Source of the DNA: Parcubacteria group bacterium
Lineage (GTDB): Bacteria; Patescibacteriota; Patescibacteriia; Buchananbacterales; UBA6539
DNA length: 43,880 bases
Reading direction: 5' to 3'
NCBI GenBank assembly: GCA_002687175.1
Contig: NYZP01000010.1
Coordinates: 1-43,880 of the forward strand
A program made the translations under genes and the position numbers. This document shows positions 25,599-29,085 of this stretch, in pieces. The notes under the pieces are model-generated. The model was not told the DNA's origin. It saw nothing but the letters and a program-made list of their open reading frames with translations, and made no database searches. Position 1 is the stretch's first letter; each line of letters starts with the position of its first letter.

Positions 25599-25807
25599 AT
25601 ATGCTACTTTTTGGACAACTGCTTGATGCCTTGGGTACTATCCTGATCGCCATCATGGCACTGCGGGTTCATCATCACGTAATCAAGGAACACAAAATTG
25701 ATGCCTCAGTTTTTAAAGAAATGAAACATGAACAAAAAATCGGCTTTTTAGGAATCTCTTTATTAGCTATTGGTTATCTGATACAGCTGTTAGTCCACTT
25801 GAATTAA
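25595..25807 (+). CDS. small two-TM hypothetical protein
   Basis: ATGA overlap with upstream gene; in operon. Confidence 0.7.
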   Translation: MNMLLFGQLLDALGTILIAIMALRVHHHVIKEHKIDASVFKEMKHEQKIGFLGISLLAIGYLIQLLVHLN

Positions 25808-25818
25808 TTTTTATATAT

Positions 25819-26304
25819 ATGAAAGTTTACCTTGGCGCTGATCATGCTGGTTGGCAACTGAAAGAAATTATCAAAAAATATCTGGACCAAAAAAAAGTTA
25901 GCTACCAGGATTTAGGTAATAAAGTTTTAGATAAAAATGATGATTATCCGGATTACAGTTTAAAAGTAGCAAATGCTGTAATCAAGGACAAAAAAAGTTT
26001 AGGTATTTTATTTTGTGGTTCCTCGGCCGGTGCCTGTATTACCGCCAACAAAGTTAAAGGCATAAGAGCGGCATCAGTCAGAAGTCTAGGAGAAGCAAAG
26101 CTAGCACGCTCGGATGACGATGCTAATATTATTTGTTTGGCTGGTGGTCAACAAGTTCAACAAAAAGTTAAAAATGTTGGAGTAAGCCCGGCCTTAGCAA
26201 AAAAAATTGTTACAACCTGGCTGGACAGCTCATTTTCAAATGCTCCAAGACATAAACGTCGAGTTGGTAAGATTAAAAAAATTGAAACAAAAAACTTCAA
26301 GTAG
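25819..26304 (+). CDS. rpiB: ribose-5-phosphate isomerase B
   Basis: GADHAG, DYPD, GILFCGS, ANKVKGIRAA, RHKRRV. Confidence 0.93.
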   Translation: MKVYLGADHAGWQLKEIIKKYLDQKKVSYQDLGNKVLDKNDDYPDYSLKVANAVIKDKKSLGILFCGSSAGACITANKVKGIRAASVRSLGEAKLARSDDDANIICLAGGQQVQQKVKNVGVSPALAKKIVTTWLDSSFSNAPRHKRRVGKIKKIETKNFK

Positions 26305-26305
26305 T

Positions 26306-26440
26306 ATGCCTGGTAGTGAAACTTTGATTAGTCTGACAAAGACGAGCAAAAAATACTACCGGGTAATAGCTTACGAAAAAAGATTTAATTAACTAATAAT
26401 TTTGATTTATTAAAAATATCAAAGTTCTACTACCGAGTAT
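26306..26440 (+). promoter_or_regulatory. structured intercistronic element copy 1 with 28-codon ORF (26306-26392)
   Basis: 26306-26328 pairs with 26418-26440; homologous to 27956-28094. Confidence 0.75.
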
Positions 26441-27116
26441 GGCTAAACAGATTGTGCCAGCAATTTTAACTGATGATATCAAGGATTTAAAAGCTAAGCT
26501 GACCAGCGTTGCCAAATTGACCGACTGGGTACAGGTTGATATTATGGATGGCAATTTTGTAAACAATACTTCAGTCAGTCTAACTGACCTGGCAAAGCTA
26601 CCTCACTCCTCAAATATTTCAGCTCACTTAATGGTCCTGAACCCAGAGAAATACCTAGCTGACTGCAAGGCTGCCGGAGTTAAAAGGGTACTGGTACATT
26701 TCAAGAGTTCTAAAGATATCGGAGTTGTTTTAAAAAAAGCAAAAAAAATGGGGTTTCAGGTAGGATTAGCAATAAGTCCTAAGGTATTTATAGAACAAAT
26801 TAAAAAATATATAGCTTTGGCAGATATAATTTTAGTCTTAGGGGTTGAGCCAGGCTTTGGTGGACAAAAATTAATTCCCGAAAGTTTAAATAAGATTAAG
26901 GAGCTTAAAAGAATTAGTCCAAAAAAACTGATTGAAATTGATGGTGGCGTTACTCTTGAAAACATCAGTGAAATTAGTGAAGCTGGAGCAGATATATTCG
27001 TTATTGGTAGTGGAATTTTTAAAACTGACAATATTAAAAAAACTATTAAGCAGCTAAAAAGAAAAGTTAATCCCAATTTATTAAATCTATGGGGTATATT
27101 CACGATAAAAAAATAA
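26439..27116 (+). CDS. rpe: ribulose-phosphate 3-epimerase
   Basis: VDIMDGNFV, HLMV, VEPGFGGQ, EIDGGV, GADIFVIGS. Confidence 0.95.
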   Translation: MAKQIVPAILTDDIKDLKAKLTSVAKLTDWVQVDIMDGNFVNNTSVSLTDLAKLPHSSNISAHLMVLNPEKYLADCKAAGVKRVLVHFKSSKDIGVVLKKAKKMGFQVGLAISPKVFIEQIKKYIALADIILVLGVEPGFGGQKLIPESLNKIKELKRISPKKLIEIDGGVTLENISEISEAGADIFVIGSGIFKTDNIKKTIKQLKRKVNPNLLNLWGIFTIKK

Positions 27117-27949
27117 AAAAGCTTGAGGTGATTGCCACCGATATTAGGCAAGACTTAATCAAGATGTTACTCGAGGCCGGTTCTGGTCATACTGCTGGTC
27201 CTATCAGTTTGGCTGATATTTTTACGGCCTTGTATTTTCACGTTCTAAACCATAAACCAAAAAAACCAAATTGGGATGGTCGTGATCGTTTAATTTTGTC
27301 GGCTGGCCATCTTGCTCCAATTCGTTATGTGGCCATGGCTTATGCTGGTTATTTCCCAAAGAAAGAATTAATGACTTTAAGAAAACTGGGGACTAGACTG
27401 CAAGGTCACCCAGAACGACTTGCTTTACCCGGTGCCGAGACAACATCCGGTCCCTTGGGCGACGGTATTGGCCAAGCCTGTGGCATCGCTCTAGCCGCCC
27501 TAATGGATAAGAAAAAATTTCGAGTTTACTGTTTAATGTCTGATGCCGAGCAACAAGCCGGAATTGTTTGGGAGTCAGCCATGTTCGCCGCCAAAAATAA
27601 TTTAAATAACATTACCGCCATTATTGATCGAAATAATATTCAAATTGGTGGTATGACCGAGAAGGTAATGCCAATAGAGCCATTGAGAAGAAAATACCAA
27701 GCTTTTGGTTGGCATGTTTTGGAAGTTGATGGTCATAATATTGAAGCGATTGTTGACGCCACAGAAGCGGCCAAGGCTATTTATGAAAAACCAACTTTGA
27801 TTATTGCCCACACTATTCCTGGCAAAGGTCTAAAAGAAATGGAATTTGATTACAAGTGGCATGGCAAACCACCGAAGAAGGATGAGGCCGAAAATTTTCT
27901 AAAAGAATTACGAACCCTTGAAGGCAAAATTAAAAGTGAACACGAATAA
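27089..27949 (+). CDS. transketolase, N-terminal (TPP-binding) subunit
   Basis: GSGH, RDRLILSAGH, LQGHP, TSGPLG, DRNNIQ, GKG, WHG. Confidence 0.95.
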   Translation: MGYIHDKKIKKLEVIATDIRQDLIKMLLEAGSGHTAGPISLADIFTALYFHVLNHKPKKPNWDGRDRLILSAGHLAPIRYVAMAYAGYFPKKELMTLRKLGTRLQGHPERLALPGAETTSGPLGDGIGQACGIALAALMDKKKFRVYCLMSDAEQQAGIVWESAMFAAKNNLNNITAIIDRNNIQIGGMTEKVMPIEPLRRKYQAFGWHVLEVDGHNIEAIVDATEAAKAIYEKPTLIIAHTIPGKGLKEMEFDYKWHGKPPKKDEAENFLKELRTLEGKIKSEHE

Positions 27950-27955
27950 AATATT

Positions 27956-28094
27956 ATGCCCAGTAGTGAAACTTTGATTAGTCCCAACAAGTTGGGACAC
28001 CATAGCCGGGTATTAAAAATTAATAAACGAATTTAAATAATAATATTATAAATAAATTTTGGTAATTAAATATCAAAGTTCTACTACTGGGTAT
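27956..28094 (+). promoter_or_regulatory. structured intercistronic element copy 2 with 26-codon ORF (27956-28036)
   Basis: 27956-27978 pairs with 28072-28094; homologous to 26306-26440. Confidence 0.75.
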
Positions 28095-29085
28095 GCCAAT
28101 AAATAAATCGGCAAAATTAGCTCGTAATCTATTTAACAAAAAAGATGTTAAACGTTTACCAACGCGTGATGGCTATGGTCATGGTGTATTAAAAATAGGG
28201 ACTAAAAATAATCAGGTGGTGGTACTTTGTGCTGACTTGATTGAATCAACCAGATCGCATTGGTTTAAAGAAAAATTCCCTGAACGGTATGTTGAGCTAG
28301 GAGTAGCTGAACAAAACTTAGTGGCCGTAGCCGCCGGCATGGCCATTGGCGGAAAAATTCCTTACATTACTTCTTATGCCACTTTTAGTCCTGGACGAAA
28401 TAATGAGCAGATCAGAACTTTGGCTTGCATCAGTGACTTGCCAATCAAAGTAATTGGCTCTCATGCTGGAGTATCAGTTGGACCGGATGGAGCAACTCAT
28501 CAAGCCTTAGAAGATATTGCTTTAATGCGCGTTCTACCACGGATGACCGTGCTAGTCCCTTGCGACGCAGTGGAGGCAGAAAAAGCTACTATAACAGCGG
28601 CCAGAATTAATGGCCCAGTCTACGTTCGTTTAGCTCGTGAAAAAACCCCCGTCATGACCACGTCAAAAACTTCTTTCAAGCCTGGCAAAGCCAATATTTT
28701 TTGGCGAGGGAGTGATGTCACGATTATAGCTTGTGGCCCGTTAGTCCACGAGGCACTCTTGGCTGCTAAAGTGTTGGAATCAAAAAAAATAAAAGTGGAA
28801 GTAATTAATAATTCGACAATTAAACCTTTGGACGAAAAAACAATCTTAAGTTCTGTTAGAAAAACTAAAGCTGTGGTTACGGTTGAGGAACATCAAGTTA
28901 ATGGTGGTCTAGGCAGTGCTATTGCCGAACTGCTTGGTAAAAAATTACCAACCCCAATTGAAATGATTGGCTTGCAGGATCGATTTGGTGAGTCGGGAGA
29001 ACCTGAAGAATTACTGAAACATTTTAAACTAATCAATCCTCACATAATTCAAGCAGTTAAAAAAGTAATTCGAAGAAAAAGATGA
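28093..29085 (+). CDS. transketolase, C-terminal subunit
   Basis: GVAEQN, VGPDGATHQALED, IKPLD, TVEEH..GGLG, DRFGESG. Confidence 0.95.
   Translation: MPINKSAKLARNLFNKKDVKRLPTRDGYGHGVLKIGTKNNQVVVLCADLIESTRSHWFKEKFPERYVELGVAEQNLVAVAAGMAIGGKIPYITSYATFSPGRNNEQIRTLACISDLPIKVIGSHAGVSVGPDGATHQALEDIALMRVLPRMTVLVPCDAVEAEKATITAARINGPVYVRLAREKTPVMTTSKTSFKPGKANIFWRGSDVTIIACGPLVHEALLAAKVLESKKIKVEVINNSTIKPLDEKTILSSVRKTKAVVTVEEHQVNGGLGSAIAELLGKKLPTPIEMIGLQDRFGESGEPEELLKHFKLINPHIIQAVKKVIRRKR

Follow-up and report, generated by a model that had tools for sequence, protein, structure and literature searches.

Two short elements occupy the junctions between rpiB and rpe and between the two transketolase subunit genes in a 43,880 nucleotide (nt) stretch of a Parcubacteria group bacterium (contig NYZP01000010.1 of assembly GCA_002687175.1, the whole stretch being called the window below). 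They are in our assessment probably transposable elements of the miniature inverted-repeat kind (MITEs) of a Patescibacteria family with terminal inverted repeats (TIRs) and a target-site duplication (TSD), whose coding form carries a predicted GIY-YIG nuclease gene that would be read from a start codon borrowed from the host, and whose short open reading frames (ORFs) would relay translation by opening the stem made by the paired ends. An earlier reading of the sequence only had offered two proposals, a switch that serves the pentose-phosphate operon and works by translational coupling or a ligand and, alternatively, a MITE targeting start codons with duplication of TATG. The first is contradicted by the unrelated hosts, the variable interior and the absence of an Rfam family, and the structural parts of the second are borne out by dispersed copies, 4-bp TSDs, empty junctions and a coding relative.

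Both elements extend from one ATG to the next. In copy 1 the first ATG (26306) is one base past the rpiB stop and the ATG of rpe (26439) follows 133 nt later; in copy 2 the first ATG (27956) is six bases past the stop of the gene for the N-terminal transketolase subunit (tktN, stop 27947-27949) and the ATG of the gene for the C-terminal subunit (tktC, 28093) follows 137 nt later. This geometry, the TATG at all four ends and the gene names, with which Pfam agrees, are as the sequence-only reading had given them. The same holds for the pairing of the 23-nt arms, the G-C to A-U and U-G to C-G changes between the copies, their common A-C mismatch, the hairpins, the internal CCGGGTA, the segment ACTACCGGGTA at 26355-26365 and the short ORFs. 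A further mismatch specific to copy 1, C26310 opposite A26436, had been absent from it. The likeness of the two elements exceeds chance. Within the window the arm core of 16 nt is matched 5 times, with 0.88 expected and none of 100 shuffles reaching 5, and the two-arm pattern has 2 matches, with 0.00 expected.

The genome from which the window comes (1.116 Mb, 35 contigs, 36.7% G+C) contains nine copies of the family, and the covariance model R1, for which the elements were taken free of flanking sequence, recovers the same nine sites and nothing else convincing. All nine adjoin, at a constant distance from the arm, the start codon of an ORF of 123-820 amino acids (aa), on the 3' arm side in eight copies and on the 5' arm side in one. 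According to Pfam the hosts are rpe, tktC, MurJ, a ParA-like ATPase, the delta' subunit of DNA polymerase III, PilM, FtsK, a response regulator and one ORF without a family. The element is not specific to the pentose-phosphate operon. Restriction to sugar-phosphate genes, which had been named as support for regulation, was not observed in this genome or its relatives, where copies are dispersed before unrelated genes; of what had been predicted for a MITE, dispersed copies at TATG were found, and the orthologous rpiB-rpe junctions of other genera lack the element. Internally the two window copies are 60% identical, whereas copy 2 reaches 83% with the copy at C1:222691, so that the two are not nearest relatives of one another, and between most copies of the genome the interior is only 43-66% identical. 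The two window peptides, which had been described as alignable, have only the arm-encoded MP(G/S)SETLI in common with the other copies; their further likeness is not found in the other seven copies of the genome.

The ends of the family are 20-nt TIRs, CCNNGTAGTGAAAnTTyGA on the 5' side and TCrAAnTTCTACTACNNGG on the 3' side. A census of flanks and start codons was made on 111 non-redundant copies, a start being that of an ORF of at least 50 aa. Beyond the ends, CCNN...NNGG, the adjoining four bases form direct repeats; the duplication is perfect in 56 of the 111 (TATG/TATG in 41, CATA/CATA in 15), and many of the others are near variants. Clean duplications of unrelated sequence also occur (e.g. 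TCAA, TGAA, CTCA, TAAA, TTTA, CAAG, AAAG, TGGA, TTCA, CGTG, CTTG and CCTC), which shows true transposition. Since the flanks are 4-bp direct repeats that include other sequences, TATG is the duplicated target and lies outside the element proper, so that of the extent given by the sequence-only reading the structure stands and the limits move to 26309-26437 and 27959-28091.

Exactly on a start codon are 79 of the 111 copies, 58 with the 3' arm beside the gene and 21 reversed. Duplication of TATG at a start leaves one ATG upstream of the element and keeps the host ATG downstream. The other 32 copies were inspected by eye, and in at least seven of them (L017, L022, L116, L111, L094, L081 and L104) the element overlaps or touches a start codon with its register shifted; in L111, L094 and L081 the terminal base of the element restores a start codon. 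Neighbouring copies which share a 4-bp junction, in tandem or head to head, were seen at L011 (G010:C8), L027 (G002:C10), L015 (G030:C22) and L246.

Orthologous rpiB-rpe junctions of relatives from other genera are 3-15 nt long and free of the element, and the nearest ones read TATG across the start. The tktN-tktC junctions of relatives gave no empty site for copy 2; by reading of the spacer the transketolase halves form one fused gene in L036 and L041 (unconfirmed for L039, L042 and L045). The start of ParA is occupied in the own genome and in another genus in opposite orientations, which indicates independent hits. Transketolase is split in two genes in the own genome and in L040. Different palindromic elements of 120-200 nt stand just before the next start codon in other genera, in L040 (at both rpiB-rpe and tktN-tktC), L044 and L048 (at rpiB-rpe), that of L040 resembling the GTCATCCC family, and in this order insertions that form hairpins seem to be common where genes meet.

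The covariance model matches ten of 61 genomes drawn from the same family, order and class (counting the own genome), with a patchy presence and varying copy numbers. Of 23 copies fetched from the nine other genomes, 21 abut ORFs of at least 67 aa, whose ATG adjoins the 3' arm in 17 and the 5' arm in four, two copies being without any. Judged by their N-termini, the host ORFs in these relatives are presumably enolase, the ribosomal proteins S16 and L6, NusG, ParA, triose-phosphate isomerase and phosphoglycerate mutase. In a collection with one genome per species at least 119 stretches match the exact two-arm pattern; among the 80 matches listed, 62 are titled as Patescibacteria lineages and the remaining 18 titles, whose labels are unconfirmed, are Gammaproteobacteria (6), Bdellovibrionales (7), delta proteobacterium (1) and just "bacterium" (4). 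The family is probably a transposable-element family widespread in Patescibacteria. A phage vector is not indicated, since the 2.9 million viral contigs gave a single two-arm match (L263, IMG/VR). Seawater and marine metagenomes from other years have contigs with both window copies unchanged (runs X2 and X3). One contig each in the seawater runs X2 and X3 joins 26333 to 26415, skipping 81 nt, with a shorter side of 29 letters; this joint most likely stems from another copy of the family and not from a deletion allele. In genome G002 an intact full-length copy, a broken full-length copy and about a dozen short copies are found side by side.

The full-length form came to light among the fetched loci, where L075 has a repeat pair about 300 bp apart, and a search of five genomes gave three more such pairs. 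L172, L075 and L173 have the same repeats, the TATG duplication and a single ORF running from the 5' repeat toward the 3' repeat; L173 is the same element as L172 with an internal stop, and L174 is degenerate and partly masked. Full-length members measure about 300-345 bp and their ORF 95-100 aa. This ORF matches the Pfam family GIY-YIG (PF01541, E=1.4e-16 and 3.5e-14); the nearest solved structures in a profile search are the UPF0213 proteins BH0048 (E=1.1e-8) and EF2693 (E=5.5e-6) and the structure-specific endonuclease SLX1 (E=4.5e-5), and the invariant columns of the family alignment (Y14, Y16, Y28, G30, R38, H42, E62 and E74) comprise the catalytic GIY, YIG, Arg, His and Glu. By these matches the product is a predicted nuclease of the GIY-YIG superfamily, of the UPF0213/SLX1-like kind.

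In L172 the 100-aa ORF starts from the flanking ATG, reads MPGSETS... through the repeat and has no further Met before the GIY motif. A protein search gave 287 homologues, from Patescibacteria and named "GIY-YIG nuclease family protein", "putative endonuclease" or "excinuclease ABC subunit C"; among the best 120, 39 begin with MPx(S/R)E, and 18 of these 39 are without a Met before the GIY motif. Scanning metagenomes with the family alignment gave at least 600 stretches, 580 of them confirmed, of which the best 80 were examined. Both repeat cores, 294-346 bp apart, are present in 36 of these 80 loci, flanked by TATG/TATG in 18 of the 36. An ORF of at least 93 aa continuous with the flanking codon is found in 27 of the 36, this codon being ATG in 19, TTG in one, GTG in one and a non-start codon in six. 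The full-length ORF appears, from this arrangement, to borrow the start codon of the host gene. Its stop is mostly 20-21 nt upstream of the host start, a distance measured with a script that mislocated some 3' repeats (e.g. L183); the other counts are from a separate analysis.

The window copies belong with the MITEs by their TIRs, the fixed 4-bp TSD, the many dispersed non-coding copies and the longer coding element with the same ends. Codons 1-8 of the short ORF of copy 1 correspond by homology to the N-terminal end of the GIY-YIG ORF of full-length members, and the short ORFs of the window would be relics of this frame, left after internal deletion. In the mechanism that we propose, the GIY-YIG protein would supply mobility in trans to long and short copies and may act on a hairpin or cruciform made by the paired ends; that it is the sole ORF, with its frame fused to the 5' repeat, suggests such a role. 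Insertion at a start codon would give the full-length element a translation start, perhaps also a promoter, and the 4-bp duplication would hand the host gene back its start codon. Internal deletion would then leave short ORFs such as MPGSETLIS... and MPSSETLIS... in the window. In the mRNA the paired ends would bury both ATGs, and ribosomes from the captured ATG may traverse the 5' arm, hold the stem open and so allow use of the host ATG, a relay which would fit the anatomy of the element. The coding form has a substantial chance of being a new transposon class. A fuller description of this class, with a SLX1-like, structure-specific GIY-YIG nuclease of about 100 aa as its only protein, acting on its own hairpin or cruciform, homing to start codons, translated from the host start, handing an ATG on to the host and leaving derivatives that keep the stem-opening ORF, is put forward tentatively, as a serious possibility somewhat short of an even expectation.

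Several observations weigh against the explanation as a whole. The own genome is without a full-length copy bearing these repeats, and its nine small GIY-YIG ORFs sit in other contexts. Forty-four of the best 80 metagenome loci fall short of the repeat cores, 38 having neither and six only one. No contig from the four metagenome runs spans an empty site, and we know of no GIY-YIG nuclease shown to make insertions with TIRs and a TSD. On the side of translation, the upstream start is lost in 15 of the 79 start-codon copies, and the median distance from the stop of a short ORF to the host ATG is 66 nt, with three ORFs passing beyond this ATG, which makes a simple termination-reinitiation unlikely. 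Finally, a single protein that must bind both ends would likewise be expected to make them covary, and the covariation is no proof of an RNA role.

Over 145 distinct rows the paired share of the stem cells is 98.0%, with 87.8% in shuffles; of the 19 pairs, 13 vary on both sides, and none of 500 shuffles equals this. Such covariation fits a DNA hairpin or cruciform, RNA pairing or a protein reading both ends, and cannot discriminate between them. The upstream start is kept in 64 of the 79 start-codon copies, and all 64 short ORFs traverse the whole proximal arm. In the nine copies of the own genome the short ORFs, of 3-55 codons, show no conservation beyond the arm. A serious alternative to the relay as explanation of host gene expression, although one that we consider rather unlikely, is that RNase III would cut the stem from the transcript, as it does with intervening sequences of rRNA, and leave a short unstructured leader. 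The length of the stem, 19-23 bp with a conserved internal mismatch, would suit this, as would the 15 copies found in front of intact genes despite having no upstream start, and the scarcity of Shine-Dalgarno (SD) sites, an SD-like motif being found at 100 of 644 starts. A study of rRNA insertions in the candidate phyla radiation (CPR) also reports that some insertions other than introns contain GIY-YIG ORFs, and mentions intervening sequences cut by RNase III (PMC11270868). A cut would, on the other hand, sever the operon transcript between the gene and the part upstream of it.

How the copies come to be at start codons allows two answers. At the starts of the own genome T is found at -1 in 402 of 644, so that TATG is the usual start context, and the upstream regions are A/T-rich. 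With a crude ORF mask the genome has 6905 TATG/CATA sites, 5611 coding, 790 intergenic and 504 at ORF boundaries, and about 1% of intergenic 4-mers are TATG. If only TATG were needed and insertions inside genes were lost, about 39% of the copies would be expected at starts, whereas nine of nine in the own genome and 79 of 111 overall are found there. This excess points to targeting or a strong retention bias. It is unlikely, in our view, that start codons are not targeted at all, insertion being near-random or TATG-preferring and copies at start codons merely surviving, with in-gene insertions lethal and copies in neutral spacers soon deleted from streamlined genomes. The frequency of TATG at normal starts, the large share of coding TATG/CATA sites, the duplications other than TATG and the shifted-register copies whose end base restores a start all speak for survival. 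The excess over the predicted share and the rarity of TATG among intergenic 4-mers speak against it, and a full-length element expressed only when it sits at a start codon would favour evolved targeting. The idea that the target is the transcription start of leaderless messages was rejected, there being no peak of TATAAT-like hexamers 5-9 nt before the ATG; their summed frequency is 0.30 at element sites and 0.22 genome-wide.

TIRs with a fixed-length 4-bp duplication are a signature of DDE transposition, and IS1380 elements have CC ends and 4-5-bp duplications. The ends of the present family are of this type, 38 of the best 80 GIY-YIG loci have neither repeat core and the GIY-YIG genes of the own genome are without these repeats, all of which would suit a MITE moved by an unseen classical transposase, e.g. 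of IS1380, with the GIY-YIG ORF as a passenger or nested selfish gene. We regard this as distinctly unlikely. No DDE transposase gene was found between the repeats in the five genomes or the fetched loci, the whole collections not having been searched; in the five genomes nearly all cores have a partner at a distance of about 100-130 bp or else of about 300 bp, and no pair encloses a gene of 1-2 kb. The fetched loci likewise show only a long form of GIY-YIG size, and fusion of the GIY-YIG frame to the 5' repeat, as in 27 of 36 loci, is unexpected for a passenger.

A dedicated regulatory RNA of the pentose-phosphate operon, in which the stem hides the next start until a ligand or ribosome opens it, is highly improbable: the stem is stable (RNA fold z-scores of -3.87 and -6.53 on the plus strand for copies 1 and 2, and of -2.96 and -5.38 on the minus strand) and covaries, and the internal segment of copy 1 could pair with the 5' arm instead, but seven of the nine copies in the own genome and more than 100 elsewhere precede unrelated genes, the interior is as divergent as given above, a permissive scan of 25800-28600 at E up to 10 found nothing relevant in Rfam, so that neither a riboswitch nor another Rfam cis-regulatory class is at hand, and the target duplications and empty orthologous sites show insertion.

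The family can be compared to several known systems. The Correia or NEMIS elements of Neisseria are short, non-coding, dispersed MITEs with TIRs and a short TSD, co-transcribed with their neighbours as a long hairpin. The present short copies resemble them in all of the first features; they differ in the target, which is the TATG of a start codon here and TA in Correia elements, and in the coding relative, which has a GIY-YIG nuclease and no classical transposase, and in the relic reading frame, whose start is the ATG duplicated from the host. Mycobacterial interspersed repetitive units (MIRUs) are repeats at operon gene junctions with small ORFs that touch the adjacent stop and start, suggesting a kept translational coupling. 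Position and stop/start-touching ORFs are alike in the two, but MIRUs are direct tandem units without inverted ends, TSD or a known nuclease-coding relative. The Rickettsia palindromic elements are palindromic mobile repeats of reduced genomes, tolerated at sites that interfere with coding; they insert in frame inside genes and join the protein, whereas the present family is at the start and leaves the host protein unchanged. UPF0213 and SLX1 proteins are the best matches among solved structures, from which the present family differs in having its N-terminus encoded by a terminal repeat; we know of no case in which one of the solved proteins belongs to a mobile element. With free-standing and intron-borne GIY-YIG homing endonuclease genes the family has in common a selfish nature and a small GIY-YIG nuclease as the sole gene. 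Homing endonuclease genes spread through cleavage of the empty cognate allele, and neither terminal repeats nor a target duplication belong to them. Homing endonucleases recognise the uninterrupted cognate site and not their own DNA (PMC1564403), and the present family differs from their genes by its TIRs, its 4-bp duplications, its place at the starts of many different host genes and its short non-coding derivatives. Literature outside supplements and subscription journals gave no description of a TIR element carrying a GIY-YIG gene at start codons, nor do the available parts of PMC12455944, PMC11270868 and PMC1564403 contain one.

If the proposed explanation is true, a GIY-YIG nuclease joins the short list of enzymes that move TIR elements, and the expression of the parasite and the survival of the host are both solved by one 4-bp duplication of a start codon. 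It would explain puzzling short-ORF spacers in operons of Patescibacteria and the many small proteins annotated as "GIY-YIG nuclease family protein" that start with MPGSE, and calls for caution in gene calling, such ORFs beginning on host sequence. Copies stand before presumably essential genes (FtsK, MurJ, DNA polymerase III delta', enolase and ribosomal protein genes) and offer a natural experiment on how a start codon is found beside a strong hairpin with almost no SD sites.

The features of the two copies and their host genes are collected in Table 1. In most short copies, by eye and without a count, the outer 3' arm recurs internally in degenerate form as CNGGGTAAT, for example at 26355-26365, 28006-28012 and in L014, L022 and L028; the variable base of this internal form tracks that of the 5' arm. 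In other copies the internal CNGGG covaries in the same way with the CCNN of the arm (a reading by eye, with no formal count). A repeat of the inner 5' arm, AAYTTTGAT, is also seen near the 3' arm in many copies, again by eye and without a count. These internal arm-like repeats may reflect an alternative pairing or be the relic of a nested insertion. At the position equivalent to the small hairpin of copy 1 (26331-26343) other copies have hairpins of different sequence. Scans within the element gave 8 promoter-like sites, against 8.6 in shuffles and thus without support for a promoter, and 0 terminators.

Table 1. Coordinates of the two elements and of the adjoining host genes in the window.
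Feature	Position	Strand	Evidence or remark
rpiB, upstream host gene of copy 1	25819..26304	+	Pfam LacAB_rpiB, E=2e-41; stop TAG 26302-26304
Left TSD TATG, copy 1	26305..26308	+	ATG 26306-26308 = captured start of putative relic short ORF
Putative relic short ORF, copy 1, 28 codons, MPGSETLIS...	26306..26392	+	first 8 codons = 5' repeat
MITE copy 1 (probable), 129 bp, CCTG to CGAG	26309..26437	+	covariance model 117.3 bits, E=1.5e-21
Inverted repeats, copy 1	5' 26309-26328, 3' 26418-26437	+	alignment, fold
Small hairpin GTCT/AGAC just inside 5' repeat, copy 1	26331..26343	+	fold
Degenerate internal copy of outer part of 3' repeat, ACTACCGGGTA	26355..26365	+	read by eye
Right TSD TATG, copy 1	26438..26441	+	includes rpe start codon 26439-26441
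rpe, host gene whose start was struck by copy 1	26439..27116	+	Pfam Ribul_P_3_epim, E=1.5e-47
tktN, transketolase N-terminal subunit, upstream host gene of copy 2	27089..27949	+	Pfam Transketolase_N, E=4.4e-54
Left TSD TATG, copy 2	27955..27958	+	captured ATG 27956-27958
Putative relic short ORF, copy 2, 26 codons, MPSSETLIS...	27956..28036	+	ORF list
MITE copy 2 (probable), 133 bp	27959..28091	+	covariance model 100.7 bits, E=5.6e-18
Inverted repeats, copy 2	5' 27959-27978, 3' 28072-28091	+	
Interior, copy 2	hairpin 27981-27998; internal CCGGGTA 28006-28012	+	fold, sequence
Right TSD TATG, copy 2	28092..28095	+	includes tktC start codon at 28093
tktC, transketolase C-terminal subunit, host gene struck by copy 2	28093..29085	+	Pfam Transket_pyr + Transketolase_C

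The rpe and tktN genes overlap by 28 nt (27089-27116). Small GIY-YIG ORFs elsewhere in the own genome have surroundings of their own. One at C15:213-500 immediately follows tRNA-Val, and 13 bases from the 3' end of this tRNA recur downstream; another at C1:195914-196132 stands before tRNA-Ser, the 5' half of this tRNA being duplicated upstream; and a third, on the minus strand at C30:38640-38876, is just upstream of the RNase P RNA gene and has a 10-nt inverted repeat on its flanks. Small GIY-YIG ORFs of a second family (C34:68146-68361, C2:44941-45159 and C32:5673-5873) lie between other inverted repeats of about 27 nt, each a hairpin (TTGTCATCCCTGCGAAAGCAGGGATCC), and these ORFs have their own ATG after the repeat.

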